Source: a virus (lineage: Duplodnaviria; Caudoviricetes). Taken from it: 54,059 nucleotides of DNA. The position numbers and the translations under genes were made by a program. Where the stretch lies: the IMG/VR virus record IMGVR_UViG_3300033150_000652, positions 1 to 54,059 of that record; one strand, 5' to 3'. Of this stretch, positions 1 through 49,155 are shown piece after piece. The notes under the pieces were generated by a model. It was not told where the DNA came from. It saw only the letters and a list, made by a program, of their open reading frames with translations, and did not search any database. Numbering within the stretch: the first letter of the stretch is position 1; the number at the start of each line of letters is the position of its first letter.

Positions 1-114
1 GGCATATTCATCGGGAGGCAGTTTGCGCAACTCATCCATTGACCAGATTGGCTTGCCGATTGTGGCCCGCGTGATATTGCGCCAATGGGGGTCGGTAATG
101 CCCAATTCGTTAAC
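1..114. repeat. Terminal direct repeat (circularisation overlap), copy 1
   Basis: 1-114 is identical to 53946-54059, and a reading frame runs through the junction. Confidence 0.97.
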
Positions 115-3100
115 AATGCGTCCTATATCTTCAGGCGTCAAGTGCTCGCCCGTTGGCATTCCCGTAAGATTGGGCGGGAATGTCTGTGTAGGAGCAAGAA
201 GGTCGGCCTCACCCGATAGTAACGCCACACTTTCCTTGGGACTTAACCCAAAGAATTTCTTTAAGTCTCCCTTCCACTGCCTGTAAGAGGGCAATTGCCC
301 CTGTTTGAGTTCAGTCAGCGTCTTGCGCAATCGCTCATATTGGTTGTCGCTTACTATCCCTTTCGATTTAGCAATTTCCAAATCCCGAAGCGTGCCATCA
401 ATCTGATCTCGACGTATAGGCGTCCAGACACCATGCTTACCGAGTTCGCCACGATAATGGATGTCTTCAATATCTTCTAATTGAACTCCGCCACCGACAC
501 GCTTTTTATGCTCTATATCCATTCTGCCATAGGAAGTGCCCCCATAAGCCTCTTCGCGTGCAAAAGTCCAGGCAGGGAACTCATTAACCGTCTGGTCCAT
601 ATGACTGATGATGAGCCAACGATCACGCGCAATCTCATCTACAATCTTGCGATATTCTTCGAGAGGGATATCTTCAGGGATATTCTCTACCAATCTTCGA
701 CAAATTGCTTCCCAGTGTTCCATAGATTTGGGACTTATATCACCTGGGACGGGGTGATATCCTAACCCATATTGTAACGACCTTTCCCTTAATCTTTGAG
801 CGGCTTTTTGTGCTTCTTTTGTAAGAACTTTGAAATTTGCCCGCTTCTCAGGGGCAGGGTCCCATCTCTTCAACGCTTCCTGTAGGATTCGATATCGCTC
901 GCCATACTCCTCCCTCATGCTCTTTTCAATAACATCTACCGCTCGTCCCGTCTTAGATTTCGCTTCATCTGCATGGGCTCGGAGTTCCCCAATTGCACGG
1001 TCAAATATATCGTTTACGTCTTGTGCGGATTTTGCGCCATCCAATTGTTTCCCTACCCATTCAAAGATAGGGGAAACGTAATCGGGTGGGGTTTTGCTAG
1101 GATAAGCCAACAGATTCGGCGCTGGCTTCAATGCTTTTTGGATATTCTCTTGAAATTCCCTAGCGTTGGCCGTAAGGTGAGGGTTCATTAATACTTGGCG
1201 TAATTCTTCCACCTTCTGTTCGGGAAGATATGGCGCAATCTCATCCAGAACGCCTTGTACAAGGCGGGGACGCATTTGCTCGAATTCTCCCGCCATTGCA
1301 TCGGCAAATATCTTTTTACTGAATAATGACTCACAACGGCTGTATAAGTCGAGCACAGCGCCTACTACCGTGGCGAGATTTGCTTTCCGCACAAAGCGAG
1401 TTCCTGGTTTCTCTATCTTCTTCCCTATATCCGTCAGGCCCTCTTCGGTAGCCTGCATAACTTTCTGTAACGCAGGGTGTTCTATAGGTTTAGGCTTCCG
1501 CCCAAATAGTTTTTCCACTACCAAATTCCAGGTTTCCCTAGGCGTCTTCTGCCCAATAGGGAAGGGGAGTTCTGCCATTGCTGGCTTCCGCCCAGGAGCA
1601 CCGAATATGGTTTCGCCCCCTAATCGTTCAGGGACTTCCCCCAAAGTCCTCCTTATATAGTAATCGGCGGAATATCCCCCAGGAAGGTTGCCATCGAGGG
1701 TGAGTGTAGTCAGTCCCAAGTTATTCCAAAGGTTGTTCCAGAATGTGCGGAGGGACATGCCCAACCAACTTTCCTTCATCAGTCGGCGGGCATAGTCCAG
1801 GGTTCGAGTGATGACCCCTTTCGTCTGTAAATCTAATCCCAACTCACGGGCCTTGGCTCCTAATATGGCCCGTTTGAATACGTGCTTAATATATCGGTCA
1901 TACTGTTCGGGGGTCAATTGCTCCACATTCAGGCCAAGTGATTCTACTTCTCTATCCACCATCTTTTTAAGCATGGCAGTAGGGTCTTGCGTGGTAACCT
2001 TGTGTATATCATCGGCAAGGTTGGTAATCCTTATAGGGTCAAGAGAGGCAGTAGGAGATAGCGCTTTAACCATCTCCTCGGCAGCGCCCTTGGCCCCTAT
2101 TTGGTCAACACTAGAGAAGATATTGCGTAGTTCATCCATCTTCTCCGCTGGTATATCTTTCCAAGGTATGTCGGCCAACTCAGCGGCTCTCTTAACCACG
2201 GCCGAATAGCCCTTTTCATCAATTACGGTAGGGAATACATCACGATACCATTTGTAAAATTTTTCTTTGGCCCCTCTGGAGATAGCAGGGACTTGTTCTC
2301 CCTCTGGCCCTACCAAATAATGTATCCATTCCAACGGGCCCACATCCTTTGGCTTGGCTTGCATTACCTCATTGAGCACATCATCGACCTCGCGACTGAG
2401 TATCCTCATTTTGGAATAATTAGTCTTCTGTCCTAACCATTTGAGGACAGGGATTTTACCAAACACTGTCCCCTCTGTGCCCCCCATGAGGCCGACCGCT
2501 TTCAACCCCGTCTTAGCAGTTGTTTTAAGAGGCCACATTACGGGCGCTTGTAGGGCCTTGGATATGCCAACGGGAATAAGCCAAGCAGGGTCAAGAAGCA
2601 TCTCGCCAATCATTTCATACCGCCAATCGGCGTGCTCCCTTGCCACCTTAGCCACGTCTTCGATAGGGAGTTCATCGAAGGAAACGCCTCTCTCCTCTTT
2701 TAATCGCTCTATATCTCGCCAGAATTGCGATTCTCGTAAGGGCTCAGGTCTTGAGGGCGCTGGTAATGATGGCGCACCCACCACGGGGACTTTATAAGGG
2801 TGTTTTTTGAGATGATAAATAGGAGACAGAGGGGCAAGTGCCCTAGCAGCAGGCTCTAGCATGAATGTGTATCCTGCCTCTTTGCCAATCTGGTAAATCT
2901 TGGGTATATTCCCCCTGGCTCGCGTTTGCCCCCCTATCGTTCTGGCAGTAGCCAGTTGTTTCTGTTGGGCCTTGGTAGGCGCTAAATAAGGTACGCCAGG
3001 AATATTATAGGGTTGCCTTCCCGCTGCCCTAAAGGGATACACGGTGGTATATAATGCCCCCTTCACCTTCCGCGCTGGTTCGACAAAAGGCCACATGACG

Positions 3101-3693
3101 GGAGTTTCATATCCCAAGGGCCCCCGTGCCGAGAAATAAGGAACCAAACCTAGAAGCCCAGGCCCCAATCCCTTCCGAGGGTCCCCCCAAAGGGAAGCCG
3201 CTAAATCCAAAAGGAATTTATCCGTTGCACTAGGGTCGTATACTTTGGTGGGTATAGTACCCCCATAAGTATGAATCACGCCTGGAGTACCTTGAGGGGG
3301 CTCAAGGCGTTGATACCAATTCTTTAGTCTCTCCCATTCTCCCCCTAGCCAACCCGTTACTTTTCTTCCCGCTTCTTGTACATCACCCCAAGTCCATTCC
3401 GTGATGGGGGGAATGTAGGGCGGTAATCTTGGGGGCGCTTGTCGTATAACTGGTTCGGGCCCGAATTTTTCTGGAGGGACATATTTAGGAATACGCGCGG
3501 GTTTCATCGGTGGAGGCCCAGGACGTGTGCCCCCCAATCTACTAGGCGGAGCACCACGCGGTATGCGCGAAGGTTGCTCTGGCTCATACGGTTGCCCCTC
3601 GTATGGGTCAAATCCCCAATCAGGCTCCTGCTGTCGCCGTCTATTCAATTCCCTTTCAAACTCAGGGTCATCCCAAAACGGTATTACAGCCAT
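1..3693 (-). CDS. Giant virion/DNA-ejection-type protein, 5' part (continues across the junction to 50994; ~2,214 aa total)
   Basis: ATG at 3693 after GAGG (MAVIPFWDDPEFERE...). Translated by hand without a stop to about 1700, and the ORF track shows no closed ORF in this frame below that. In frame with ORF 50994-54050 through the overlap. Confidence 0.85.
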   Translation of the reverse strand, partial: MAVIPFWDDPEFERELNRRRQQEPDWGFDPYEGQPYEPEQPSRIPRGAPPSRLGGTRPGPPPMKPARIPKYVPPEKFGPEPVIRQAPPRLPPYIPPITEWTWGDVQEAGRKVTGWLGGEWERLKNWYQRLEPPQGTPGVIHTYGGTIPTKVYDPSATDKFLLDLAASLWGDPRKGLGPGLLGLVPYFSARGPLGYETPVMWPFVEPARKVKGALYTTVYPFRAAGRQPYNIPGVPYLAPTKAQQKQLATARTIGGQTRARGNIPKIYQIGKEAGYTFMLEPAARALAPLSPIYHLKKHPYKVPVVGAPSLPAPSRPEPLRESQFWRDIERLKEERGVSFDELPIEDVAKVAREHADWRYEMIGEMLLDPAWLIPVGISKALQAPVMWPLKTTAKTGLKAVGLMGGTEGTVFGKIPVLKWLGQKTNYSKMRILSREVDDVLNEVMQAKPKDVGPLEWIHYLVGPEGEQVPAISRGAKEKFYKWYRDVFPTVIDEKGYSAVVKRAAELADIPWKDIPAEKMDELRNIFSSVDQIGAKGAAEEMVKALSPTASLDPIRITNLADDIHKVTTQDPTAMLKKMVDREVESLGLNVEQLTPEQYDRYIKHVFKRAILGAKARELGLDLQTKGVITRTLDYARRLMKESWLGMSLRTFWNNLWNNLGLTTLTLDGNLPGGYSADYYIRRTLGEVPERLGGETIFGAPGRKPAMAELPFPIGQKTPRETWNLVVEKLFGRKPKPIEHPALQKVMQATEEGLTDIGKKIEKPGTRFVRKANLATVVGAVLDLYSRCESLFSKKIFADAMAGEFEQMRPRLVQGVLDEIAPYLPEQKVEELRQVLMNPHLTANAREFQENIQKALKPAPNLLAYPSKTPPDYVSPIFEWVGKQLDGAKSAQDVNDIFDRAIGELRAHADEAKSKTGRAVDVIEKSMREEYGERYRILQEALKRWDPAPEKRANFKVLTKEAQKAAQRLRERSLQYGLGYHPVPGDISPKSMEHWEAICRRLVENIPEDIPLEEYRKIVDEIARDRWLIISHMDQTVNEFPAWTFAREEAYGGTSYGRMDIEHKKRVGGGVQLEDIEDIHYRGELGKHGVWTPIRRDQIDGTLRDLEIAKSKGIVSDNQYERLRKTLTELKQGQLPSYRQWKGDLKKFFGLSPKESVALLSGEADLLAPTQTFPPNLTGMPTGEHLTPEDIGRIVNELGITDPHWRNITRATIGKPIWSMDELRKLPPDEYA

Positions 3694-5802: not shown

Positions 5803-7560
5803 TCACACCTGCGGTTTCTTTCCTGGTACTACGCCTAACGCCTGTTGCATTTGTGTCTTGGGTGCTGGTGCCCCACCCTGCGGGCTGGGTATCTTTGGTG
5901 GCGGTGGCGCACCCTTGCCCGCCTTAGGCATACTCATAGGCAGTCCCCCGCCTGCCATCGTAGCCACCTGTCGTTGGATAATTTGCTGGAACACCTCTTG
6001 TGCTAACGGTAACCATTCCGAGCCCTCCGCTTGCAATGCATCTATAAAGGCGGGTATCATCATCAACGGGTGGCGCAATGCCATCTCCCGCATCTTCTGT
6101 CTCAATTCTTCCTCTGGTTGCTCCACGCCGTAATATCGCTCCATAATGGTGCGGTCGGATAGCACCTGTAACTGCTTGGCTTGTGCACCTATCGTTGCCA
6201 ATCTTGCCTCATCTAGCGGAAGCACCCTGCTTATACTCACATCAATACGCTGTCCCTCTAAGTCTCGCCCCAGCATCTGAATGGCATATGGCTTGCCCTT
6301 AACCTCGCCATAAACGGGGATTAAGGTATCGGGACTGAAATTAGCGCATAAATCGCACATCTTGCGGAATAACACGGATAAACACAATTCCATCTGCTTT
6401 CTTGGAATACCGAGTCTGATACGACCACCTTCCGATAACTGGGACAGGGCATATCCCGATACGCTTCCTGGGCCTTGCCCATACACCGCTTTGGGGAAGC
6501 CCGCTTCTTGCATCTCATCATGGAATATCGTTAACTGTATAGCCATATCAGGCGGAGAGCCAGGCCAGGTGGGAAAACCCACCTCATCCTCTGGGCCTAG
6601 TTCCACCACCTCCCCAATATCGGCATCCACCTCTATAGGCGTAGAGCCCTTATGCATAATCGGCAGGGCAGCATAGACTTTCAGCGCCCTGGCCTGCATG
6701 GACAATAATTTCTCCATCTCCCTTAGGGGGTTCTCTAGGGCAGCCAAGAAACTTAAGCCTGTCCATTCGCCCTTGGGCGAGCCCGTGGGCTTGCAGAAGT
6801 TGATAGTGTAAGGCAAGTCGGTATAGCCAGGCATATGGGTGGGAGGACGTAGAAGTTCTTTCCCCGCAATGATAGTGTTCCAAACCTCGTTGCCTCTGAA
6901 TTCCCAATAATCTATGAAGTCCAGTTCTGTCTTGGCCTTTTGCTTTAGCGACACGTGGTCATATTCTTCTAACGGCCCAAACTCGTCTTCAATATCAAGG
7001 ATGGTACGACGCTGATGATAGATAATCCACTGCCATTTCCTCAACGGGGCCCCAGAGGGCATGGGATAGACATTGGCAGGGTCTATAACCTGCAATACCA
7101 ATGGGCATTCGGGCCAGGCTTCGGGTAGTTCGTCCTCTGGGTCTCGGCGTTCTAATAGTGGCTCCCAATAAGCCCTGAAACAGACCCAACCTTTTACTAG
7201 CATATACCAGAAGGCATCATAGAGAATATCGGTTTCCTGGCGTTCGGAGTTGATGTATAACACGCCCATGAAAAATTTCTCAATCTGTTCGGCAAGGTTG
7301 CGCTGGGCTTCATCCTCAAGGTTGTACACCGAGATTTTGATATTCTGGGCGGCCAGGATACCTGAGGCTATATCTATAATGTTTTGTGGCGTGGATAGGG
7401 TGATACGTTGCTCACTGGGTCTGCGGGGCGTGTCCCAGTGCTCAAGAAAATACAGTTTTTCCATCTTCTCGAACATGGCGTTACGTTTCTCATAGAAATG
7501 ACGCCGTTCAAAGAATTTACCTTTTATCTCCTGTATTATCTCGAAATCGTATTCAGCCAT
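5803..7560 (-). CDS. Portal protein
   Basis: 585 aa downstream of TerL; LQVIDPANVYP, VYGQGPGSVSGYALSQL and LSDRTIME segments and a Q/P-rich tail are typical of podovirus portals. Confidence 0.85.
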   Translation of the reverse strand: MAEYDFEIIQEIKGKFFERRHFYEKRNAMFEKMEKLYFLEHWDTPRRPSEQRITLSTPQNIIDIASGILAAQNIKISVYNLEDEAQRNLAEQIEKFFMGVLYINSERQETDILYDAFWYMLVKGWVCFRAYWEPLLERRDPEDELPEAWPECPLVLQVIDPANVYPMPSGAPLRKWQWIIYHQRRTILDIEDEFGPLEEYDHVSLKQKAKTELDFIDYWEFRGNEVWNTIIAGKELLRPPTHMPGYTDLPYTINFCKPTGSPKGEWTGLSFLAALENPLREMEKLLSMQARALKVYAALPIMHKGSTPIEVDADIGEVVELGPEDEVGFPTWPGSPPDMAIQLTIFHDEMQEAGFPKAVYGQGPGSVSGYALSQLSEGGRIRLGIPRKQMELCLSVLFRKMCDLCANFSPDTLIPVYGEVKGKPYAIQMLGRDLEGQRIDVSISRVLPLDEARLATIGAQAKQLQVLSDRTIMERYYGVEQPEEELRQKMREMALRHPLMMIPAFIDALQAEGSEWLPLAQEVFQQIIQRQVATMAGGGLPMSMPKAGKGAPPPPKIPSPQGGAPAPKTQMQQALGVVPGKKPQV

Positions 7561-7569
7561 ATCCTATCC

Positions 7570-8679
7570 TTACCTTAACTTTAAGGGTATCGGTGTTGGC
7601 ATTACTGGTGGTATATACGGTGCGGGCGTTATTTCGGGCATAATCTGAGGCTCTAAATATAACCAATTTTGTAAATTACTTCTGTTCAGCGTTACCTCTG
7701 GATACTGTGCTGGGGCGTTAAGCAGATAACGCGATTGGTAGAAGGGCCAAGCGCTATAAGGTATTTCCTGCCACGTGGGCCGATTGCCTATCATGCCCTG
7801 CACATAGGCGATATTAGGCCCCTCTGCATATATCTCCCGCCGACCCGTAGGCTCTGGCCCCCGACCGATGATGCTTATGATTTGTCGTGCCAGCCAGGGC
7901 TTCCGTTCATAGAGAGCCTGCGCGACATCCTCGCGAAATTGCCTATATCTATCCCAGTAAGGATTTTCTTCCCAAGGAGCAACCTTAGTCCAAGCACGTA
8001 AGTTTCCCTCCCCACCGAACAGATTTTCCTCCTGTACTTTGTGCCCAAACTCATGGGCTAAAAGCAAATAGGGATTTTCAGGATAGTTATATTCGATAAT
8101 AATACCCCCTTTGGGGATTGTTACCTCCTCGCCACTTAGTGTGTATCCTTTTTGAGTAATGGGTGCGTATCCTCCCGAAGGGCGCAACTCGCCATAGGGC
8201 GGTACATTCATCCATCCCTCAGAACCAGCCTGCATAGCATAGATGGGAGTAACATCAAACATATAATCTATATAATCAGGATTCATCTGAGGGAATATCT
8301 CTTTCATCCGCTCCGCTGTTAACCATTTATCCTCTGGCGTGGCGAGAATAATGGGCGGAGAGCCATATGGTCTTGCTCCTGGAGGCAACATAGGATATTC
8401 TCCCAATATCTCATTGGGCCTCCAATCCTCAAGAAAAACGGTGGGGGTTAGAACATCCTCTTTGCGATATGTAGCCAGGGGAACCGAGAGAGGGAATCCC
8501 CCCGTCGTCAAATCCGCTACTGGGACGCCTGCTATTCTTCGTGGTGGAGTAGAGAGGGGCGGTGGTGTTATTCCCCCAGCAGACGGAAATCCAGGAGGTT
8601 GCGCCCCAGGTTCTTCATACGGCTCTTCCCATTGCGGATGACGTGGTTTGTATCCTCCCTGCTCCGATGGGTCTATCAC
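7570..8679 (-). CDS. MIDPS-tag protein with HExxH zinc-metallopeptidase-like motif
   Basis: N-term MIDPSEQGGYK; LLAHEFGHKVQE with downstream EIYAE. Confidence 0.7.
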   Translation of the reverse strand: MIDPSEQGGYKPRHPQWEEPYEEPGAQPPGFPSAGGITPPPLSTPPRRIAGVPVADLTTGGFPLSVPLATYRKEDVLTPTVFLEDWRPNEILGEYPMLPPGARPYGSPPIILATPEDKWLTAERMKEIFPQMNPDYIDYMFDVTPIYAMQAGSEGWMNVPPYGELRPSGGYAPITQKGYTLSGEEVTIPKGGIIIEYNYPENPYLLLAHEFGHKVQEENLFGGEGNLRAWTKVAPWEENPYWDRYRQFREDVAQALYERKPWLARQIISIIGRGPEPTGRREIYAEGPNIAYVQGMIGNRPTWQEIPYSAWPFYQSRYLLNAPAQYPEVTLNRSNLQNWLYLEPQIMPEITPAPYIPPVMPTPIPLKLR

Positions 8680-8682
8680 ATT

Positions 8683-9447
8683 TCACCTCCATTTCCAATA
8701 TAAGGGCAGATGCAATGGTATTATCGTTGGCGTTGGAGTGGGCGTAGCAGTAGGAACAAGGGTGGGTATAAATCGCTCATTTACATCTATCCTGCTAATA
8801 TCCACTGTCGGCCCTGGCGTAGTCGTCGGCGCTACTATTGGCTCCCCACCCCGATATGGATAAAATTTCCCCAAAACACTGTAGTAGGGCATACTTTCTA
8901 TATCGGGATATGCCTGACTAAGATAGGCATAGGCTTCTTCAGGTTGCGCCTCAGGCGGATATTGTTGAATAGTATCCCATATCCATGAGGGCATTCTTGG
9001 GTTACTTGCAATTGCTGGCTCGTAATACTGCTCCCACCCCGAAGGAATGTTTACAGGACGTTGGAAATCTATAACATGAGTAGCCTCGTGAGCCAATGTG
9101 ATTGGAAGGTCTGGGTTGGGATAGGTTAAATCTATAACCCCATGAGGGCCATAACCCTCACCCTCTACGTATAATCCTGTGGGTATTGTGCCTCCCACAC
9201 GAGGCAATCCTTGGTGTAACCTAATAGGCACGTTCTGTCGTAACCAGTTCTGAATTGTGGGGTCAAAGTCGTATGTTTTAAATACCTCTCCCCATAAATC
9301 AGGTGGCACCGTTGGCGTCGGTGGTGGTGTATATGGCAACGGTGTTATGGTTGGTGCGTTGCTGGTAGGTATGGGCCCACCATAGGTATATCGTTCAAGG
9401 AATCCTCGCGGTCGTTTATAGCCACCTTGTTGCGATGGGTCTATCAA
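8683..9447 (-). CDS. MIDPS-tag protein with HExxH zinc-metallopeptidase-like motif
   Basis: N-term MIDPSQQGGYK; TLAHEATHVID with downstream EEAYAY; PT-rich tail. Confidence 0.7.
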   Translation of the reverse strand: MIDPSQQGGYKRPRGFLERYTYGGPIPTSNAPTITPLPYTPPPTPTVPPDLWGEVFKTYDFDPTIQNWLRQNVPIRLHQGLPRVGGTIPTGLYVEGEGYGPHGVIDLTYPNPDLPITLAHEATHVIDFQRPVNIPSGWEQYYEPAIASNPRMPSWIWDTIQQYPPEAQPEEAYAYLSQAYPDIESMPYYSVLGKFYPYRGGEPIVAPTTTPGPTVDISRIDVNERFIPTLVPTATPTPTPTIIPLHLPLYWKWR

Positions 9448-9456
9448 TTTATCCTC

Positions 9457-10053
9457 CTACCAAGGTATTTCCCCACTGAAACCATAATCTCGCGGGATAA
9501 ACATGTATGGAGGTGGGAATTCACCTTGTGTTGAGAGCATAGGAACCGCCCTAGCGCTCCTGGGGGGCACTCGCAGTGGTGGACGTATACCGACGGGTGG
9601 TGGCCCCACAAAACGCCAATCTATATTGGGTATCCTTGGGGGGGGATATGTCGCTGATAGATTCCTCTCGGCCCAGTCTCTAAAGGGCGCTATCTCTGGC
9701 AGAAAATAATTATATCGTCTAAGGGTTGATAGATTCCTCTCGGCCCAATCTCTGAAAGGTGCCACCCAGTCCCTAAGAGTTTGATAGGGTTGATATACTA
9801 CTGGCAGTTCAGGTGGTTCCAATATCCTCTTGCCTAAACGCCACGCGGGTCTAAGTATAGGGGGAACAGACTGTTCTATCCCAGGTGAATATTGTGGCAG
9901 AAAGTCTAATGCGCCGATATTCCTCCTGGCGAAATCGTGAAAAGGGAAAAGATTGGGCGGAGGCGGAGAGGCGGTATATCTCTCCCTAAATCCCCGCGGG
10001 TATTTCTTTTTCTCTTTGGGTTTATAACCGCCCTGCTCTGAAGGGTCTATCAT
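9457..10053 (-). CDS. MIDPS-tag Pro-rich protein with internal repeats
   Basis: N-term MIDPSEQGGYK; PFRDWAERNLS twice plus PFHDFARRNIG. Confidence 0.7.
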   Translation of the reverse strand: MIDPSEQGGYKPKEKKKYPRGFRERYTASPPPPNLFPFHDFARRNIGALDFLPQYSPGIEQSVPPILRPAWRLGKRILEPPELPVVYQPYQTLRDWVAPFRDWAERNLSTLRRYNYFLPEIAPFRDWAERNLSATYPPPRIPNIDWRFVGPPPVGIRPPLRVPPRSARAVPMLSTQGEFPPPYMFIPRDYGFSGEIPW

Positions 10054-10066
10054 TTATTCCTCCTTT

Positions 10067-10612
10067 CTATGCCCCCATTGGCATTCCTGGCCTTATTCCA
10101 CCCATCGGTGGTCTCATTCCTGGCCCCCCACCCATTCCTGGGGGCGCACCTAATCTACCCTGTGCTATCATGCGCATTAGCACCTGAATCCAGGGCCATA
10201 ACTGCGCCCATAGTTGGGGCGGGATATTCGCTGGCGGTGCTGGCATATTGCCCATATTCGGTGGCATAGGGCGCTGGCCCATCATCGTGGGGGGTCGCAT
10301 TCCCATTCCACCCCCAGGGGGCAGTCCAAGAGCAGGCCGAAGCCCCATTCCGCCCACGCCTGCACGCATGGGAGGACGTGCACCCATAGGTGGCCCAGCA
10401 CTTCTCGTTGGAGGCGGTGTGCCCCTCATTGGCGGTCTCATACCCGCAGGAGGAGCCTCCCTTGTTGGGGGCCGTGGTGCGCCTCTTCCTTTCTTCCTAG
10501 GCACCCAGTTGCGCAGATTTTCCTCGTCTCGCTCTTCCTCTTCGTCTCTCTCGCCCTGACGGGCCCAGTTCGCCCATCTCTTTCGTCTCTTGTCCCCACC
10601 TGGATCGTACAT
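10067..10612 (-). CDS. Low-complexity P/G/M/R-rich protein
   Basis: SD GGAGG; MYDPGG N-terminus; MRPP repeats. Confidence 0.65.
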   Translation of the reverse strand: MYDPGGDKRRKRWANWARQGERDEEEERDEENLRNWVPRKKGRGAPRPPTREAPPAGMRPPMRGTPPPTRSAGPPMGARPPMRAGVGGMGLRPALGLPPGGGMGMRPPTMMGQRPMPPNMGNMPAPPANIPPQLWAQLWPWIQVLMRMIAQGRLGAPPGMGGGPGMRPPMGGIRPGMPMGA

Positions 10613-10879
10613 TTATTCCTCCTTTTTACTTATTTGTATTCCGAAACAGCGCCCGCAGTTGGCGCATTTCCACAGTTCATCCCCTCCGCCACCTATGTAA
10701 ACGGATACTTCCAACCTCTCAACGTCTGGACTCCCGCAGTGGGGACAGTTCAGGCGCTTTTGGGCCAGGTGGTGTAGTAAGGATTTACTGGCCGATAAAT
10801 GATGTAATATGTTGGTGATTCTGGCTCTCCCAACCGACGTAGCATCCATTCTGCCAATCTCACCTGCAATTCCAACCAT
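10613..10879 (-). CDS. Zinc-ribbon protein (start uncertain)
   Basis: CPHCGS...WKCANCG near the C-terminus. Confidence 0.45.
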   Translation of the reverse strand: MVGIAGEIGRMDATSVGRARITNILHHLSASKSLLHHLAQKRLNCPHCGSPDVERLEVSVYIGGGGDELWKCANCGRCFGIQISKKEE

Positions 10880-10915: not shown

Positions 10916-12301
10916 CTAAAAGTTAAACGGACTTCGCCATCGTGCTCTACGTTTCCTCTTGATGATGCCGTAATGGTCTACTAAGGCGTAAATCAGGGCC
11001 TTAATACTATCGCAATATCTATCTATCGGTTTATCGCTGACTGGCTTCCCCTCTTTATCTTTGGGATATTGATACAGCCCGAATTCCTTGAATATTCCCT
11101 TACAAGCAGGATTAAACTTAACCCTGGGCCTTCCATCGGCGGGGTTCTTCAAAAATGTATGTAAAACATATATCCCGTCTTTTATCATCACGGGTCGGGA
11201 TACAACTGGTATGCTCGTTAACGCTGACCAGACTTCAATCGGCGCTTTCCCCGCCTGGGCGTGCTGCCTGCCTCCAAAGTGGCATATCACAATCTTATCT
11301 ACCTTCTTCCACCAGGGCTTTAACTTACAGGCGTAAATTACCTCCTCATGCACCATCTTTTGCAAATACAATTCGTCAATGACTTCCACATCATTGCCAT
11401 AAAACTGCATGGCTAAGCAGGCGTAATAACTTCCACCCGCATCACCCCTGTATCCTGGGTCTATAGCCAGCACAACGTCTTCTTTCTCGTTAAACTTAAC
11501 GTCAAATGATACGTGAGTGGCATAATCGAATTCTGGGAACACGACCGTAGCGGGTGGACAGGGCACGGCACCGCATCTTTCCATGAACATGGCATGGGTG
11601 TACATCTTCTCCAGTTTGATTATCTCTGGGTCTTCTCTACCCCCTGGGTATATCTTGGTATTTGCCCAGGAGGGGATGGAGAAACTTACCCCGCCCTCAA
11701 AGTTATCGCCCTGCCATCTTTTCCATAAATCAACGTACCAGCCGAAACTTCCCTCGAAGGTTCCTATCAATAATAACCAGCCCCGCTTTTCAGCCACCCT
11801 ACCGACTAACCTCAAGTACGTTTCTTCCGTCATCTGGGCAGCCTCGCACATAAGAATCCCATCGGGGGCTTTCGCTGCCAGTTTAACAGGGTCTTCCGCC
11901 GTTTTCGTCTCCAGGGTAACGCCAGTCTTAGTTATTAAAGTACATGGCCCCTGCCTAGGCCAGGAGATAGTCTGTATGTATGCTTCGTGAAACCTCTTCA
12001 GCCATTCCACTACGTAAGTGAATTCTGGCCTTGTTAATTCATATGTCTGCGCTACTAACCAGTATAGCGCTCCTGGGGGAGCAAACAGTATATCTGAGGC
12101 TAACTCCGCTGCCCCACACAAACTCTTTCCCGCTCGCTCTCCCCCAGCAACTAACCTATTCCGCTCATTACATTTATGCACAGGAATCTGACCCTCATGA
12201 GGGTCGTATCCAATCCTATCGAATACACGTAGTTTGTCTTCAAACGAAGCATACATTATCTGCCTGCGAGAAAGGTATCTCTTAATATTGGGGGCGGACA
12301 A
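10916..12301 (-). CDS. terL: Terminase large subunit
   Basis: YDPHEGQ Q-motif, Walker A AGGERAGKS, Walker B-like ILMCEAAQ, RNase H-like AIDPGY and VIDELY. Confidence 0.92.
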   Translation of the reverse strand: MSAPNIKRYLSRRQIMYASFEDKLRVFDRIGYDPHEGQIPVHKCNERNRLVAGGERAGKSLCGAAELASDILFAPPGALYWLVAQTYELTRPEFTYVVEWLKRFHEAYIQTISWPRQGPCTLITKTGVTLETKTAEDPVKLAAKAPDGILMCEAAQMTEETYLRLVGRVAEKRGWLLLIGTFEGSFGWYVDLWKRWQGDNFEGGVSFSIPSWANTKIYPGGREDPEIIKLEKMYTHAMFMERCGAVPCPPATVVFPEFDYATHVSFDVKFNEKEDVVLAIDPGYRGDAGGSYYACLAMQFYGNDVEVIDELYLQKMVHEEVIYACKLKPWWKKVDKIVICHFGGRQHAQAGKAPIEVWSALTSIPVVSRPVMIKDGIYVLHTFLKNPADGRPRVKFNPACKGIFKEFGLYQYPKDKEGKPVSDKPIDRYCDSIKALIYALVDHYGIIKRKRRARWRSPFNF

Positions 12302-19960: not shown

Positions 19961-20197
19961 TTATTTTTTCTTTTTCTTGCGCCCTCTCTTGGGCATCTTC
20001 CGAAGCGTCAGCGCAAGCCTCGCCCTTCGCCCAACCTTATCCTTCCGCTTGGCAGCAGCGCGGAGTTTCGACACAGGAATGGGCTTATCTGGTGGCACAC
20101 CCAAATCCTTGTGCAACTGCCCCGGCCTCTTGATAGCGGATTGTATCCACTTCTTCTTGCGGGGCTTACGCTTTGCAGTTGTCCTTTTCCTTGCCAT
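19961..20197 (-). CDS. Small Lys/Arg-rich phage protein (KKWIQ.AIK.PG.L type)
   Basis: SD GGAGG; KKWIQSAIKRPGQLHKDLGVP...RRARLALTLRKM. Confidence 0.7.
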   Translation of the reverse strand: MARKRTTAKRKPRKKKWIQSAIKRPGQLHKDLGVPPDKPIPVSKLRAAAKRKDKVGRRARLALTLRKMPKRGRKKKKK

Positions 20198-20248
20198 CTC
20201 ACCTCCGGCGGGTTCTATTCGCGCGTATCCCACCCCCCGCCCACATAT

Positions 20249-20277
20249 ATCATACCACAAACTGGAACGAATTGCAA
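20249..20277 (-). promoter_or_regulatory. Promoter for the 20197-19298 cluster
   Basis: TTGCAA-17-TATGAT with GTTTGTGGTATGAT. Confidence 0.65.
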
Positions 20278-20289
20278 AACGAGGATGAA

Positions 20290-20907
20290 ATGAGCAAGAT
20301 TAAAGATTACAAAATGCAACCATGCAATTGGAGTTCCATAGCAGATTTAATTAAACATTATCATTACTTGCATAGGAAACCCGCTTGCATTATGCAATGC
20401 TTTATTCTATTAGACACAGACAACTTAACGCCACTAGGCGCAGCGGTTTTCACTGCTGCCAGATTCCAATATGCTAAGAAGTTCCTTGAGTTCGCAAGGC
20501 TATGGGTAGATGATAGATGCCCACGCAATACCGAAAGTCGCTTTGTGGGTTACTGCCTAAGATACTTAGCCACTCAATACCCCGATTATGAGGGCGTAGT
20601 AACCTGGGCCGACCCGCAACAAGGACATGACGGTACACTCTACAAGGCATGTAATTTTGTATTTGATGGATATAGCCGCCCAGTGTCCCGATATTACAAT
20701 CCCAAAACAAAGAGAATAATATATGAAAAAACAAGAGTTCGTCCGCATTGGGTAAAGGTTGACACCCAACCCCCTAAACTACGATATATATATTATTTTA
20801 ATCCTAAAGTCCGCGAAAATGTGCAACACAAGTTCTCACATTACCACAGTCATAATCATCCCAGCCGCACACAAGGCAAGCACGGCTACAACCCACAACG
20901 CCGATAA
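20290..20907 (+). CDS. Mom-like adenine modification protein
   Basis: HYLHRKP, EFARLW..D..PRNTESRF, VVTWADP.QGHDGT.YKA.NF. Confidence 0.8.
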   Translation: MSKIKDYKMQPCNWSSIADLIKHYHYLHRKPACIMQCFILLDTDNLTPLGAAVFTAARFQYAKKFLEFARLWVDDRCPRNTESRFVGYCLRYLATQYPDYEGVVTWADPQQGHDGTLYKACNFVFDGYSRPVSRYYNPKTKRIIYEKTRVRPHWVKVDTQPPKLRYIYYFNPKVRENVQHKFSHYHSHNHPSRTQGKHGYNPQRR

Positions 20908-25744: not shown

Positions 25745-26254
25745 ATGGACACCGTAAAACTCTATGAGGACACCGAAACCCGCTTTGAGATTAATGACCT
25801 AGATAGCCTAAACTGGCTGTTAAAGAAAATTGCCCTACTGGAACGCCAAAAGCAGGACATCATAGAACTCCGTGATAAAGAGATTGCCCGTATCCAAGCA
25901 AAAGCACAAGCAATGATAGATACGGTGCAAAGCCAAATAGATTTCTTCCTAGACTCTTATGGCCCACAAGCCGAGCAGTTTGTGAAACGGTATACGACGG
26001 GCACAAAGAGGCGCTCGGTACAGACCTTGTGGGGCAGAGCGGGTTTTCGTAGGAGCAGGGAGACACTTCAGATACACAATACAGAAGCCGTTATCAACTT
26101 TGCCAAGCAGAGAAATCTACCCGTGAAGGTGATAGAAAAACCATTAGTTAAACCCCTGCTAGAATACGCAAAAGAAACAGGCGAAATTCCAGAAGGGGCA
26201 GAATATGTGCCATCAGAGGATAAGTTCTATCTGAAAGCAGAGTGGAAGGAATGA
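25745..26254 (+). CDS. Mu Gam-like host-nuclease inhibitor
   Basis: FEI.D....NW.LKKI, coiled coil, KRRS..T.WG..GFR, TGEIP.G. Confidence 0.7.
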   Translation: MDTVKLYEDTETRFEINDLDSLNWLLKKIALLERQKQDIIELRDKEIARIQAKAQAMIDTVQSQIDFFLDSYGPQAEQFVKRYTTGTKRRSVQTLWGRAGFRRSRETLQIHNTEAVINFAKQRNLPVKVIEKPLVKPLLEYAKETGEIPEGAEYVPSEDKFYLKAEWKE

Positions 26255-42420: not shown

Positions 42421-43194
42421 TTACTTTACTGGAATAATTAAATCCACATCCATCTCACCAGCGCCGAATTTGGGACTACTCGTGCCGTATTTGCGGTCTA
42501 TCTCCTGCATTTGCTTCTGCACTACTATATCCTCTTGCATGGCTGACAGTACACCCTTGCGCTCCATTGCCTCTTGGCGTCCTAGCGCTCGCAGTTCTAG
42601 TTCCTTTGCAATACTCTCTGGGACTTCGCAAACCACACCCTTGGGAATCGTTACTCTTACTCCCTGATAAGTAAAGTTTTCCCCCGTGGGACTCATATAG
42701 CGCACTTTGCGTTCGCTCTTCAATCTAGCAAGTGTCATCTGCGCTGCTGCCCTGACGTTCAACGCAGCGTTCTTAACGTCTCTGGCAGCCTTAGCCTTGG
42801 CTTTGGCTTTAACGGTGGGGTCTATGCTGTCTAGCCTGTTCCAAATCTCCCTAATTTGGTTGTTCAACGCAGCATCACGGGCTTCTCGTTTCTTCTGCTC
42901 CCGCTCATAGTGCTCCTGCAGTTTCCATATCTGCTCGTTAGTAGCCTGGATGACACGCCCCAACTCTTCCTCTAGCATAGGCTTAAGCAGGAGCACAAAC
43001 TGGAGCATCTGATTATCCGTAGCGGTCGCATACTGCTCCGCCATCGCCTTAAGTGCCTCTGGCTTGTCCACCGTAATGGTGGAACGAGGCTCTTTGGGTT
43101 TATCTGCTAAATCCTTATGCTGCCAGCAATAATCCCCGTGTGTAGCGTTCCTATTACACTGTGTGCCATCAGCCTTAATCGCTTTGCATCTCAT
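42421..43194 (-). CDS. C3H zinc-finger plus coiled-coil protein
   Basis: CKA.K.DG.QC...A..GDYCWQH. Confidence 0.65.
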   Translation of the reverse strand: MRCKAIKADGTQCNRNATHGDYCWQHKDLADKPKEPRSTITVDKPEALKAMAEQYATATDNQMLQFVLLLKPMLEEELGRVIQATNEQIWKLQEHYEREQKKREARDAALNNQIREIWNRLDSIDPTVKAKAKAKAARDVKNAALNVRAAAQMTLARLKSERKVRYMSPTGENFTYQGVRVTIPKGVVCEVPESIAKELELRALGRQEAMERKGVLSAMQEDIVVQKQMQEIDRKYGTSSPKFGAGEMDVDLIIPVK

Positions 43195-44032
43195 CTGTTA
43201 ATCCTCCCCATATTTCCTGATGTTTCTTGGCCCAGTTATCCCATGTGAAGTCCGTTAAATCCCTGCGCGGGCCATGTTCTTCAACTAATGCCTCCAATGT
43301 GCCGATTAAATCCTCTGTAGTCCAATACTCAGCACAACCGAAATCCTTAGCAAATCCTATAGGTCTGCTTATGATAGGCACCCCGCATGCTAACGCTTCC
43401 AAAACCCCATGTGGCCCACCCTCGGCATAGGCAAGGCTCAGGTAGTAATCAAACTCCTGTATGTATCGAGGATAGTCCTCGTGCCTTGCTTCGGGCACAT
43501 AGGTTACCCTCACTCCATTTAAGGCCAGTGCGCCGACTATATGATCCCAGCCTGGCCCCACTATAATGAAGTGAAAGGGGCTTAAGTCCATGCGCCAGGA
43601 TAGTTCTATCAGGGTGTATTCACCCTTTCGCCCATTCACATAGGGCCTGCCCGTCAGTCCTATCCGAATGGGCCTGGGTTTAAACATCTTATCAATACCA
43701 GGATACACAACTGTTATCTTTTCTCCTGGTATCCCCAGTTCTATCAGGACATCCTTACTATGCCGAGAGGGGCACATAATGTGTACACATTTACCACATG
43801 CTGCGCGTGCTTTGTCCCCCCAATCTACATTGAGGTGCGTAAACCACATGGTAGCCACCGTAGGCGGGTCGTTATCTATTAGCGGATGCCAGAACAGGTA
43901 ATGGTTAATATCGGCTTCAGGGTCTGGCTTGGTATCTATGGTGATATTGTCCACCCGTTTGGCTATCTCACGAGCATATCGGTCTAGAATCCAGCCCTTT
44001 TCGTTGATGATAATATTAACTTTTGGCATCAC
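43175..44032 (-). CDS. Glycosyltransferase, GT-B/GT4-like
   Basis: VVYPGID, RKG, EGGPHGVLEALACGVPII. Confidence 0.88.
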   Translation of the reverse strand: MMPKVNIIINEKGWILDRYAREIAKRVDNITIDTKPDPEADINHYLFWHPLIDNDPPTVATMWFTHLNVDWGDKARAACGKCVHIMCPSRHSKDVLIELGIPGEKITVVYPGIDKMFKPRPIRIGLTGRPYVNGRKGEYTLIELSWRMDLSPFHFIIVGPGWDHIVGALALNGVRVTYVPEARHEDYPRYIQEFDYYLSLAYAEGGPHGVLEALACGVPIISRPIGFAKDFGCAEYWTTEDLIGTLEALVEEHGPRRDLTDFTWDNWAKKHQEIWGGLTDEMQSD

Positions 44033-44906
44033 CCACCTCGGCTAGGATTTCCCTCAATTCCTGGATAGCCCCAGCCTCATTGTCACCCTGCCTGCGTAGG
44101 CTTTCTATCTGTTGTTCGATGGTCTTTTGCTGTTCCAGGAGTTTTTTGATTTTTAATTTGATGCCCTCTAACTGCTTCTCGTGTCCTCGTAGTCTTAGTT
44201 CCAAATTCTTTTTGTCCATTTTACCTCCCCTCAGTTTCCATACTTCAAAGAAATATCTTGCCAATGCAATATCCGCTCTCTGCTTCCGATAATGCTCAAA
44301 GCCTATCGGGATGTGCAGAAAGTGTCCACACCTTAAACCACAATCCATCCAGATGTCTATGCCCGCTTTCCGCACGTAGTAACAGAACCTCAAGTCAGCC
44401 CCAATTCTTTTCTGCCCATGCCAGGCTTCGGGCATAGCGCCGTCCATTACGAATGGTGCATCCCCAATGAGTGGCTTCACCGCCTCAAATACCGAACGGT
44501 GCACCAGGAAACAGCCCCAACCTGTAGCCCCTACTTTGATTAGCCCTTCGTCAGGGAAATCTATAAGAGGAAGCATAGGCCAGTTGAAATCGGGGTCATT
44601 CTCATATGCGATGGGAAAGCAAGGATTGAGTTGTCGGCGGAAGTATAATCCGCTTATCGCTTGTTTCTTATGTGAGAGCAATCTCTCTAGTGTATCGGGA
44701 GGGAATTGCATGTCCCCATCCAGATACAGGATGTAATCGTGTTTGCTCTGCAGAAATTGTTCCGTTAGTTGTTGTCTGGATATATCTCCCCTGGAGGAAT
44801 GGCGTAGCATTATCTGGTCTTCGTTGCTTCGACGGATGTTGACAATGCTGGTATATGCCTCCATGTTGGTTATAACCGCTGTCGCTATGCCGATGAAAAC
44901 GCTCAT
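44016..44906 (-). CDS. Glycosyltransferase, GT-A/GT2-like, with C-terminal coiled coil
   Basis: YILYLDGDM (DxD), LERLL, GWGCFLVHRSVFE, GADLRFC. Confidence 0.85.
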   Translation of the reverse strand: MSVFIGIATAVITNMEAYTSIVNIRRSNEDQIMLRHSSRGDISRQQLTEQFLQSKHDYILYLDGDMQFPPDTLERLLSHKKQAISGLYFRRQLNPCFPIAYENDPDFNWPMLPLIDFPDEGLIKVGATGWGCFLVHRSVFEAVKPLIGDAPFVMDGAMPEAWHGQKRIGADLRFCYYVRKAGIDIWMDCGLRCGHFLHIPIGFEHYRKQRADIALARYFFEVWKLRGGKMDKKNLELRLRGHEKQLEGIKLKIKKLLEQQKTIEQQIESLRRQGDNEAGAIQELREILAEVGDAKS

Positions 44907-45762: not shown

Positions 45763-48430
45763 TTAACTCAAGTCGTTCACGTGCTCTAACCGAACGTACC
45801 AATTGTCATTCAGGGACTTGCAATCGTGTGATGCTTTCCAACCCACGCTACCACGTAGGTTCAATGGGTTGTCCGCCCCACCAGAGTCCACTGGCTTGAC
45901 AATCAGTTCCACCGGCCTTACACGTTGACCCGTCATGGTGTGTTCCTCAGTGCCCGCCGTGTCTACTTCCTGCGGTAACGTATTGCCTATGCCAACTATA
46001 CCGTAGGCTTCTTTCAATCTGTTACCCCCCATTTGGGTGGATAGGTCATTTCTGCCTATCTCTCATGGTTTCCCATGAGTTCGGACTATCCCTTGGATTT
46101 GACAATCCCGCTCATTATAGTCTCTGAACGTTCCCCATTTCTGAGGCTTCGCTGCGGGTTACCCAATCCTTAGCCTTTTTAAGCATTCGCGCTTATCCTT
46201 TCGGATTACGCTGTAGCGGCTAAGGCTCTAAGGGCGTTCCTGCAATTTCGAGCGTTTTGCATCGGCAAAGAATTTTCACCGATGAACAGCATGGCATAGA
46301 CATCAGCGTTACTTGCACCTCCATCCGTCCACTCTTTCACATTCGAGGACATGTAGAAGTCGCAGTTCAAGAACGACCCAATGTATCCTGTCTTCATCGG
46401 GTTGCTCTCATCCCGCGCATACGCGCCCTCGAAAGCATTCCGCTCTGTTACTTGTGAACCCTTTCGGGCGGGCTAGTCATTTCTGCTAGCCTCTCATGGT
46501 TTCCCATGAGTTCGGACTGTCGCTTCACCTTGCGGTGTCCCCTCGCTCAACGAGCATTAACATAGTGCATATTCATTTTATAATCAAACATAGGCAACAC
46601 ATATGGACGGATAATATCAAACAGTTTTTGGCCCTCTTTGGCCCCCATTCCCAATACCCAATATTTACCCTTATGCCTCGAAATGCGAGTTGAAATTCCA
46701 AATCGCTCGGTTAGAAACTCTCGCATAATTTCATGTTCTTCACGGCTGAAAGCCTGGGTATGGAAATGAATTTCTCTGCTTTTGGGAGACTTGCGTCCCG
46801 ATGTCAAAACTCGATAGTGGATGGTTAACGAACCATCATCCATATACCAATATGCCAATCCTTGTGCATCCAATGGCATCAGGGCCTGCAAACTTATTGT
46901 TTTTCTTCCATTAGGATACCACCGTTTGCGCAATTTGGTATAGATAGGATGCGTGCGTGTCTCGGCAATTATTGTACCATATCCCCACCCATTATCAGGG
47001 ACCTCTCGCACATTTACGTGCGTTATCTCACGCAAAATAGCCACTTTGTGTAAAAGATACGAGCGTTGTGAGGGACTATGCTGTAGTTTAAGCATCGCAT
47101 GACGCCCCCCGTGGGATACTACAAGGCTTGCATCTCCCAAAATCATACCCGTCAATATGTTCAGCGGAACGGACACTATATGCCCTCCTTTTGCTGCTAT
47201 GTTAATGTCTCTAGTCTCTGCCCCTAGTTCGGAATCAATTCCCATCAGCATCTGCTGACCCTTGGGTCGGGTTGCCATGCGCTTTAGCGTTTAGGCTTTC
47301 CCGTTATTCAGAGGGGATTTAACGTTCCCGAATGCTAAGCGGCCAGGAACGACGGGTCCTGCATTAGAGTTACCCACAATCTGTTACTTGTTAACCCTTT
47401 CGGGCGGATAGGTCATTTCTGCCTATCTCTCCACCTTCACCGTTAGGTTATACGTGGAGTTCGGACTATATCATCACCCACTTGGGGTGCCCCGCTCATA
47501 GTCTCTACACACGCCCACCTTTCGGCTGCTTGGCTCGGTATTACCCTCCTCAGGGCTTCCACCGAATTCACGGGGTTTTCCACCGCATATTGCTACGCGG
47601 CGCACCTGGTTAAACAAGTGTCGGGATGAAGTATCGCCACATACCGCGCCCCCTCCACTGGCAGGGCATCGTTCGCCATAAGCGTGCCCAGGGCCTTCAC
47701 TACGTCCGTATAAGAAATCTTATCGTTCGTAGTATCCAGCCCCGTTCGAGCCGTAGCAGTCCCCGAATACTGCACAGAACCGTTTGCCACTAGGACATCG
47801 CGGGTGAGAGTGTCAATAGACAATCCGCACTGCTCGCCTAGGATAGCACTGAAGTTCTGAAGTATCGGGTCAATGCTGGTCAACTCAAGCACATCGCTAT
47901 GGCGTAGATAGTACCCGTACCAAGAGGGCGTGGCCGTAACCTTCGTAACGCTGGCGCTACCCGCTGCTGGCGTCTGGCCCTCGGTAAGAGCCGTAGTAGT
48001 CGCGCTCAAGGCACCGAACTTACGCCATTGAAGTTTGTTACCCTCATTCTTGTTAATGGTCGCCTTGACCCCCCACCGCCCATGAATGAGCCGTGGTAAC
48101 GCACGGGTCAAGAGTCGCATTTCGTAGTCAATCTGTTACCCCTCGGTTATATTCAGTTTATTAAAGTTCCGAGTGGGCTGGTCATTTCTGCCAGCCTCTC
48201 CACCTTCACTGTTAGGTTATACGTGGAGTTCAGACTATATCATCATCCCAGAGGGATGCTCCCCGCATAGTCGTTACACACGCCCGCCTTTCGGCTGCTT
48301 GGCTCGGTATTACCCTCCTCAGGGCTTCCACCGAATTCAGGGAGTTATTGCCCCATAGTTGCCTATGGGCGACGCACTATCCGTACGTCCGCATTTCATT
48401 GCTAAGCGTACTGGTTGTCTCCGTAGCCAT
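45763..48430 (-). CDS. Major capsid protein (N4-gp56 type), five exons: 48385-48430, 47617-48128, 47345-47376, 46278-46440, 45763-46014; 334 aa spliced
   Basis: Joins give EMRTY/YEMRLL, ILHPDT/WVTLMQDPSFL/NAF and LFIG/KEAYG; family motifs LTEG.TP, YVAILHP and NPLN.RG.VGWK; 1005 nt in frame. Confidence 0.92.
46015..46277 (-). ncRNA. Group I intron 4 (263 nt)
   Basis: P1 caucggU/Gccgaug, P10 aaagaa/uucuuu, P aauugcaggaa, Q aacccgcagc, R uucagagacua, S gggauaguc. Confidence 0.92.
46441..47344 (-). mobile_element. Group I intron 3 (904 nt) carrying a homing endonuclease
   Basis: P1 cguuccU/Gggaacg, P10 gaaugcu/agcauuc, R gcagagacu, S gcgacaguc. Confidence 0.92.
46547..47176 (-). CDS. LAGLIDADG homing endonuclease (two-motif), intron-encoded
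   Basis: LTGMILGDASL and LAYWYMDDGS; GTG at 47176 after AAGGAGG. Confidence 0.92.
   Translation of the reverse strand: MSVPLNILTGMILGDASLVVSHGGRHAMLKLQHSPSQRSYLLHKVAILREITHVNVREVPDNGWGYGTIIAETRTHPIYTKLRKRWYPNGRKTISLQALMPLDAQGLAYWYMDDGSLTIHYRVLTSGRKSPKSREIHFHTQAFSREEHEIMREFLTERFGISTRISRHKGKYWVLGMGAKEGQKLFDIIRPYVLPMFDYKMNMHYVNAR
47377..47616 (-). ncRNA. Group I intron 2 (240 nt)
   Basis: P1 cacU/Ggug, P10 ugg/cca, R guagagacua, S gauauaguc; core nearly identical to intron 1. Confidence 0.9.
48129..48384 (-). ncRNA. Group I intron 1 (256 nt)
   Basis: P1 gacgU/Gcguc, P10 acua/uagu, R guaacgacua, S gauauaguc, terminal G. Confidence 0.92.
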
Positions 48431-48483
48431 TCTAAACCTCCTTCAAGTGTTTCCCCCAGTACGCTTTTACGCATACTGGGTTG

Positions 48484-49155
48484 TTAAACTGGTATCTCGT
48501 CTTTGCTTAGTTTCCCCGAAGCACCCTGTCGGAATATCTCCTCCATTTCCTCCCAGGAGAGTTCCTTCCAGGAACGCCTCTTGGAAACCCTGCGTGGGAC
48601 ACCACTAGCAACCTTCGGGGGTTCCGCACGTCGGCCAGTACGACGGTCTTTCAGCCAATCCATAGCAGAACGCTGCATGGCTTCAGGACTGGAGTAATCC
48701 AGTTTGTCCTTCGGGATGCCGTATTCTTGGCTATACCATTCCGCCATCGAATCGCGATAAGCACGCGCTTGCTCTAAAGCCTGAAGTTGGGCGGCCTGTT
48801 GCTGAGTTTGCAGAGCAATATTGCGATAATACTCTGCCAACTGCCTGGCCTCCTCAAGTTCCGCCTGCTCCCGCTCCGCTGGCGTAAGGCTAGCATAATA
48901 CTGCTCCCGTAGACGCTGTTGCAAACTCGCCAATTGCTGCTGATACACGGCAAGTTGCCTCTGGTACTCCGCCTCCCGCTGCCTGAATTGCTGTTCCGTC
49001 TCATGTGCCTTGCGCTGGAACGTACTCTTCAGTTTGTTGATGTCCTCTTGCAGTTTAGCAACTTGCGCCTGAGTGTCTTGGGCGTCAACTTCGGGCGTCG
49101 CCTCTTGTACTTCTTCGGCAACCCCTTCGTTAACCCCTACCACTTCCTCTGGCAT
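48484..49155 (-). CDS. Scaffolding protein (putative)
   Basis: Acidic N-terminus and Q/E-rich coiled coil, immediately upstream of the capsid gene. Confidence 0.75.
   Translation of the reverse strand: MPEEVVGVNEGVAEEVQEATPEVDAQDTQAQVAKLQEDINKLKSTFQRKAHETEQQFRQREAEYQRQLAVYQQQLASLQQRLREQYYASLTPAEREQAELEEARQLAEYYRNIALQTQQQAAQLQALEQARAYRDSMAEWYSQEYGIPKDKLDYSSPEAMQRSAMDWLKDRRTGRRAEPPKVASGVPRRVSKRRSWKELSWEEMEEIFRQGASGKLSKDEIPV

Follow-up and report, generated by a model that had tools for sequence, protein, structure and literature searches.

Four consecutive genes of a tailed phage (Duplodnaviria; Caudoviricetes) open with a common peptide of 8–11 residues that appears to be held by selection, and we propose that this N-terminal tag is a shared docking peptide that loads the four gene products, here named A to D, into or onto the phage head. 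We put the probability of this reading at roughly 0.4. The tag would thereby act like the capsid-targeting sequence (CTS) of phage T4 but is not itself one. The window analyzed is the whole 54,059-bp contig of IMG/VR record IMGVR_UViG_3300033150_000652; its ends share a 114-bp direct repeat, and we therefore take it to be a circular assembly of the phage genome. Genes A to D and that of a small zinc-ribbon protein, Zn88, form a 3.3-kb block wedged into the gene run from the large terminase subunit (TerL) to the portal protein. On the minus strand, this run reads in order:

10916..12301, minus strand: TerL, upstream border of the block (phrog_2, E 1e-20; weak Pfam match to Terminase_6N)
10613..10879, minus strand: Zn88, an 88-residue zinc-ribbon protein and first gene of the block (CxxC..CxxC; sub-threshold zinc-ribbon Pfam matches; phrog_6504 at 9.5e-6)
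10067..10612, minus strand: gene A, 181 amino acids, ATG start, ending in TAG; short tag MYDPGGDK at 10589-10612
9457..10053, minus strand: gene B, 198 amino acids, ATG start; tag at 10021-10053, PRGFRERYT at 9973-9999
8683..9447, minus strand: gene C, 254 amino acids, TTG start; tag at 9415-9447, PRGFLERYT at 9385-9411, HEATH at 9076-9090, C-terminus rich in proline and threonine (PT-rich); putative zincin-like peptidase
7570..8679, minus strand: gene D, 369 amino acids, GTG start, ending in TAA; tag at 8647-8679, HEFGH at 8041-8055; putative zincin-like peptidase
5803..7560, minus strand: portal protein, downstream border of the block (predicted fold and Foldseek)

The initial annotation, made from the letters of the window, had reported that three adjacent genes start with MIDPS(E/Q)QGGYK behind three different start codons, and this is what we observed: B begins MIDPSEQGGYK after ATG, C MIDPSQQGGYK after TTG and D MIDPSEQGGYK after GTG, with 10–11 of the 11 residues identical between them. 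The fourth start that it had pointed out, MYDPGG, reads MYDPGGDK in A and is three residues shorter, lacking S-x-Q. MAFFT alignment of the DNA of the four starts places a 9-nucleotide gap that turns the A start into the same tag, yielding the consensus M-h-D-P-(SxQ)-G-G-x-K (h, I or Y). In the six-frame translation of the 54,059-bp contig, IDP[ST]xQGG occurs three times, at the starts of B, C and D. A start codon followed by x-D-P and an open frame of at least 40 codons occurs six times in the genome, and a good ribosome-binding site accompanies it in A–D only. B and C also carry the second motif that had been noted, PRGFxERYT, which begins 8 residues past the tag in B and 1 residue past it in C; PRGFxERY is found at these two places only in the six-frame translation.

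Across codons 2–11 of the tag, the three pairs formed by B, C and D differ by 5, 5 and 4 synonymous and by 1, 0 and 1 non-synonymous changes, with 23–25 of 30 nucleotides identical per pair. Such synonymous drift with fixed amino acids indicates that selection acts on the tag peptide, in agreement with the initial annotation. Judged from these codons, the similarity is held at the peptide level under selection and is neither a recent DNA copy nor conservation at the RNA level. We regard as scarcely credible the alternative that conservation acts on RNA or translation initiation (start-region structure or a codon ramp), or that the open reading frames (ORFs) are not real genes. Each of A–D has its own strong AGGAGG-type ribosome-binding site (5–7 nucleotides before the start codon in B–D), A and B share 15 identical nucleotides upstream of their starts, and A–D have no homologues, all of which would suit that alternative; the differences, however, are concentrated at synonymous third positions, with the amino acids kept fixed, the opposite of RNA constraint, and this synonymous pattern is itself evidence that the tagged ORFs are translated.

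B, C and D also share one reading frame, split by single stops (TAG and TGA) with spacers of 9 and 3 nucleotides. Given their individual ribosome-binding sites, we attribute the shared frame to chance (1 in 9). Read-through of the stop codons, which would fuse B, C and D, was rejected, since each gene has its own strong site and no tRNA gene was found; it is also contradicted by the same stops elsewhere, TerL and A ending in TAG (D ends in TAA).

Behind the tag, the proteins had been described as divergent. This stood for A and B, whose bodies showed no significant similarity to other proteins of the block (Smith-Waterman scores against shuffles, z −1.3 to 2.0), but not for C and D. BLASTP among B, C and D aligned only the N-termini, the stretch shared by B and C being the longer one. 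With the first 11 residues removed, C and D still aligned collinearly by Smith-Waterman, with a score of 77 versus 48.9 ± 7.8 in shuffles (z 3.6; none of 300 shuffles scored as high) and 62 identical pairs among 205 aligned. The alignment spans residues 38-249 of C and 104-366 of D and takes in YPxxP..LAHExxH, an E(A/I)YA stretch and the PT-rich C-terminus. The HExxH motifs stand at aligned positions (HEATH, C residues 120-124; HEFGH, D residues 209-213), and the shared E-(A/I)-Y-A, about 45–65 residues downstream in both, may provide the third metal ligand of a putative zincin. On this alignment, C and D are old, distant paralogues with a shared HExxH core; no HExxH is present in A or B.

This paralogy bears on a second explanation, in which A–D go back to a single gene and the tag is the remnant of a tandem duplication and an intrinsic part of each protein (for example a zincin pro-peptide, a metal-site cap or a folding nucleus) rather than an address. 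Besides the collinear C/D alignment, the N-terminal stretch that B and C have in common beyond the tag and the single frame of B, C and D speak for it. Against it, the tag is 10–11/11 identical, yet of the catalytic-looking core, C and D have only LAHExxH and a few residues beside it in common; A and B are tagged without HExxH or detectable body similarity; and 25–190 proline-rich residues separate the tag from the cores. We consider this explanation unlikely.

C and D may be small zincin-type metallopeptidases, as their HExxH motif and several sub-threshold leads suggest. In zincins, HExxH binds zinc and is catalytic, lies in a helix behind a beta strand and is followed downstream by a third metal ligand, Glu, His or Asp. 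Over the HExxH stretch, D gave sub-threshold Pfam matches to DUF6055 (E 0.012) and Peptidase_M43 (E 0.082), and C gave none; Pfam, PHROGs and NCBIfam returned nothing significant for A–D, and phmmer searches of PDB sequences were empty. The nearest named clusters in the ESM Atlas, all below the 0.9 line and taken as leads only, were ATLF, M90 and Mx1 (Peptidase_Mx1) at 0.83–0.88, with C pointing to the ATLF and Peptidase_Mx1 clusters at 0.83 and the leads of D lying at 0.87–0.88. A single-sequence AlphaFold2 (AF2) model of D was unusable (predicted local distance difference test, pLDDT, 32).

The four proteins are set apart from the rest of the phage by composition: proline makes up 15–20% of A–D versus 2.5–9.6% in 15 other proteins of the same phage. 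A (20% proline, 17% glycine, net charge +15) and B (19% proline, +9) are basic, and B contains an internal 12-residue repeat (9727-9762 and 9655-9690); C (17% proline, −8) and D (15% proline, −12) are acidic. Neither a signal peptide nor a membrane segment was detected in Zn88 or A–D (maximum 19-residue Kyte-Doolittle mean 0.29–1.02). High proline content together with the lack of a hydrophobic segment suggests that A–D are soluble and extended. A Sec or Tat signal was rejected for the tag, there being no hydrophobic segment, and so was a conserved leader like those of ribosomally synthesized and post-translationally modified peptides, as the proteins are 181–369 residues long and modification enzymes are absent nearby.

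The G-G-x-K present in all four tags, at a fixed distance from the end, would also suit a cleavable leader, cut by a protease of the phage or of the host at Gly-Gly or behind Lys11, in the manner of double-glycine leaders or of prohead proteases, whether or not it also serves in targeting. The nine residues before Gly-Gly are, however, far fewer than in double-glycine leaders, which are much longer, and Pro follows Lys11 in B and D, Lys then Pro being a poor cleavage context. The genome yielded neither a C39-type protease nor a prohead protease. In T4 the tags are cut off once the proteins have been loaded (PMC9026906), which counts in favor of such a leader; we nevertheless hold it to be quite improbable here.

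Successive genes from TerL to the portal gene are separated by 36, 0, 13, 9, 3 and 9 nucleotides, the stop codon of Zn88 adjoining the ATG of A. Between positions 5000 and 15000, promoter-like matches (18 versus 15.4 in shuffles) and terminator-like matches (6 versus 8.5) were not enriched. The tight same-strand spacing and the lack of an excess of such matches suggest, as the simplest arrangement, that A–D are co-expressed with the head genes.

The borders of the block agree with the placement between TerL and portal given in the initial annotation, TerL by its PHROG profile and the portal by its fold. By tblastn, TerL matched 177 deposited phage records at ~26% identity. Portal family matches in the Pfam and PHROG scans were weak, and a profile of 59 portals found no PDB sequence at E≤1. 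The AF2 model built on 59 sequences reached a pLDDT of 81.6 and a predicted template modeling score of 0.75, and Foldseek retrieved the portal of phage SU10 as its best match (E 3.6e-16), followed by those of Pan3, Pa223, N4, P22, SPP1 and T7. The gene at 5803..7560 is thus the portal gene, an assignment settled by the fold search with the predicted model.

In this model the C-terminal tail of the portal (residues 535-585) is disordered. The tail contains the only other PS.QGG of the six-frame translation, IPSPQGGAP (about 5872-5889), and the closest portal relative has QPQGGPP at the same position. The match could be chance in a tail rich in P, Q and G, or it may hint at mimicry of this tail by the tag.

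The portal protein has 11 relatives at 28–40% identity, the alignment of which was used to fetch related loci from IMG/VR; 79 distinct loci were obtained from the best 80 of 90 candidates encoding a portal relative, and 52 of them, with a complete, non-duplicate portal ORF, were used to count the gap between TerL and portal. TerL stands directly upstream of the portal in 52/52 loci, with a median gap of 8 nucleotides (range −64 to 679), versus 3,355 nucleotides in this phage. The closest relative (locus L001; portal 40% identical) has a 257-nucleotide gap without a convincing gene. Searching the 79 loci by tblastn with Zn88, A, B, C and D gave no match at E≤0.01. By this comparison, the block of Zn88 and A–D is private to this phage and constitutes a lineage-specific insertion; its absence from the relatives indicates that it is dispensable for head assembly in the clade.

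The genes after the portal have weak counterparts among the 79 loci: p71 in 12, a 573-residue protein in 25, and the two halves of a giant ORF in 4 and 9. The order of portal, a protein of 200–450 residues and then an ORF of 2,600–2,900 residues is kept in relatives. Locus L001 is also the only one with the TerL type of this phage (37% identity), the other 51 complete loci having the same portal family beside a different, 509-residue TerL ending in ..ELRS. Two TerL types beside one portal family suggest terminase replacement within the clade.

When ORF starts were compared across the 79 loci and the window, pairs sharing at least 7 of 11 residues were limited to the three pairs of the window and one exact repeat. 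The latter lies at 15458 and 15892 of locus L039, where ORFs of 52 and 543 residues have the same 12 N-terminal residues (ALLPMGAAPKLK following the start); it is probably a local DNA repeat.

A private, dispensable block that brings its own small zinc-ribbon gene also accords with a further alternative, namely that the tag docks a non-virion partner (Zn88 or, on the host side, a chaperone, a protease or some target) and that A–D are late host-manipulating or accessory proteins acting outside the particle. It is common for short linear motifs to have a single binding partner between them, and nothing ties the tag to a head protein. The location argues the other way: a TerL–portal run with spacers of 0–36 nucleotides is an unusual site for non-structural accessory genes, and the junction is otherwise closed in 52/52 relatives. 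Overall, we find this alternative rather unlikely.

Searches beyond the related loci returned no homologues of B, C or D. A word-index search of 5.8 billion proteins retrieved only D itself for D and, at E≤10, only C itself for C, and phmmer against 1.84 billion representatives likewise found D alone. In tblastn searches of 50,697 deposited phage records, B (E≤1) and D had no match, and C had two at E 0.3, taken as chance. The tag and the second motif were scanned for as degenerate DNA patterns, a type of scan that may skip records of the window's own genome. The tag pattern had no match in IMG/VR and none in JGI metagenome contigs (start codon required, position 6 free). Its one match in GTDB genomes, GIDPSWQGGYKEM, is internal to a 642-residue membrane protein, and the single IMG/VR match of the PRGFxERYT pattern is internal to an unrelated ORF of 288 residues; we took both to be chance. 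The motif search and the synteny comparison that had been proposed as checks thus provided no further tagged cargo (none in IMG/VR or JGI, one internal chance match in GTDB) and none of A–D in any of the 79 related loci, leaving the address label without comparative support.

Purifying selection on the first 8–11 residues of four proteins with different bodies resembles a shared docking motif, and the proposed docking peptide would work as follows. During head assembly, one common partner would recognize the tag on four otherwise different, proline-rich, soluble proteins, in B and C with the second motif PRGFxERYT behind it. A–D would then be loaded into the virion, or attached to it, together with the portal. 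The putative zincins C and D would serve as enzymes carried by the virion, either entering along with the DNA or exposed on the particle; A and B are the basic, low-complexity proteins of the tagged set. The sequence data accommodate internal cargo and external decoration alike. Clade context is counted in favor of this proposal: large proteins are encoded beside the portal, and the nearest solved folds are podovirus portals, including that of N4, a phage that packages a giant protein (PMC5512222). A complex prediction of the portal (59-row alignment) with residues 1–60 of B scored 0.01 in a run without controls, a score that bears on binding in neither direction.

Several observations weigh against head loading and account for the probability we assign to it. 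The tag is known from one genome, with no other N-terminal copy found in IMG/VR, JGI contigs or GTDB and no real copy of the second motif, and the paralogy of C and D implies that part of the tag sharing was inherited by duplication. The block is absent from all relatives examined, where the head assembles without A–D, and since no relative carries these genes, conservation offers no check on the function of the tag. The peptidase assignment of C and D derives from HExxH and sub-threshold leads only. Furthermore, no member of a prohead protease family was found among 49 phage proteins scanned with Pfam and PHROGs, and the T4-type L/I-x-E cut site (hydrophobic-x-Glu) does not occur in the tag, position 6 being Gln in C.

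A bolder version of the docking proposal, which we regard as doubtful, would make the block a self-contained plug-in cargo module at an otherwise closed TerL–portal junction, with its own zinc-ribbon adaptor, four proteins bearing a previously unseen capsid-address peptide and an optional PRGFxERYT. In such a module, a podovirus-like phage would gain two virion-borne zincin peptidases and two basic, low-complexity proteins, and N-terminal capsid addressing would have arisen independently of T4 as a movable, gainable unit.

Beyond the block, the window contains a giant ORF on the minus strand (1-3693 and 50994-54050), which leaves the contig at its start, stays in frame across the 114-bp terminal repeat and is ~2,214 residues long by coordinate arithmetic, with no Pfam or PHROG match. 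In the ORFs of 2,600–2,900 residues found at the same place in relatives, an N-terminal (P)FW..P.F motif recurs. The giant protein may be packaged, by analogy with N4-like phages. Residues 3-21 of B resemble residues 29-47 of the giant protein (8/19 identical, the same DP-to-PRG spacing, z 3.0); with 60 comparisons made and no conservation of the match in the giant proteins of relatives, we took this as chance.

The major capsid protein gene is in pieces (45763-48480, minus strand). Capsid-like ORF pieces lie at 47593-48120 (phrog_1357, 7e-28), 46206-46397 and 45763-46032, matches to Rfam group I introns at 46062-46287 (53.1 bits) and at 48203-48394 (51 bits), and an ORF for a LAGLIDADG homing endonuclease between the capsid-like pieces at 46547-47278 (PF03161, 8e-36). 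The arrangement suggests that a single capsid gene is interrupted by two introns, and probably by three. A 223-residue scaffold candidate is encoded at 48484-49155. The structural module also includes, at 43175-44906, two genes for glycosyltransferases of the Pfam GT2 and GT1/GT4 families; with the PT-rich linkers of C, they are compatible with surface display, and glycosylated virion proteins are a possibility. The plus-strand early region encodes a Mom-like DNA-modification protein (20173-20907; PF25680, 2e-25) and a Mu Gam-like end-protection protein (25745-26254; PF07352, 7e-16).

Experiments have established short head-loading peptides in very few phages, in the sources cited here T4 and P1, and such peptides are the basis of protein-delivery tools. 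If the docking proposal is correct, a tag of 8–11 residues in an unrelated phage lineage, on a block that relatives lack, would mean that this kind of addressing evolves repeatedly and can be gained in one piece, and it would supply a minimal tag for a simple procapsid co-expression system. The tag was found in a single uncultured genome, which tempers this prospect.

Among known systems, the locus recalls the polyvalent and portal-MuF effectors. Phage proteins whose genes neighbor those of portal and terminase repeatedly contain zincin-like peptidases (Iyer et al. 2017, PMC5512222), and the A–D locus shares with them the terminase–portal neighborhood and HExxH modules. Polyvalent proteins, as described in the same source, combine 2–15 effector domains in one polypeptide, and their delivery with the DNA has been proposed (PMC5512222). 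A–D, in contrast, are separate ORFs of 181–369 residues with their own ribosome-binding sites and stops, unfused to portal or MuF, and C and D match no zincin profile significantly.

In phage P1, the first 30 residues of DarB direct a reporter protein to the capsid, the signal being longer than 9 and shorter than 30 residues, and accessory proteins encoded alongside help loading (PMC9024508). Tag plus PRGFxERYT spans 21–28 residues in C and B, a comparable length. DarB, as presented there, is one 250-kDa protein, whereas the block here encodes a set of small tagged proteins; no sequence relation between the two was found, and Zn88 is at most a candidate adaptor by inference.

The closest formal parallel, already drawn in the initial annotation, is the CTS of the T4 internal proteins IPI, IPII and IPIII and of Alt. 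Loading into the head requires no more than the first 10 residues of IPIII (PMC9026906; PMC3012670); the CTS is common to diverged internal proteins and is later removed by gp21, its residues 8 and 10 governing processing (PMC9026906). It loads its carriers via the scaffold core, whereas the present tag is known from its sequence alone. This phage is podovirus-like and unrelated to T4, and no sequence relation to T4-like proteins was found by tblastn against the 50,697 phage genomes, by PHROGs or by Pfam, a comparison that includes no direct alignment to the T4 peptides. Two of the carriers here, C and D, are paralogues, and neither a gp21-type prohead protease nor an L/I-x-E cut site was seen. 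The formal pattern held: in both phages about 10 extreme N-terminal residues are common to diverged neighbors, the genes sit among those of the head, and part of the cargo is enzymatic in T4 and putatively so here.

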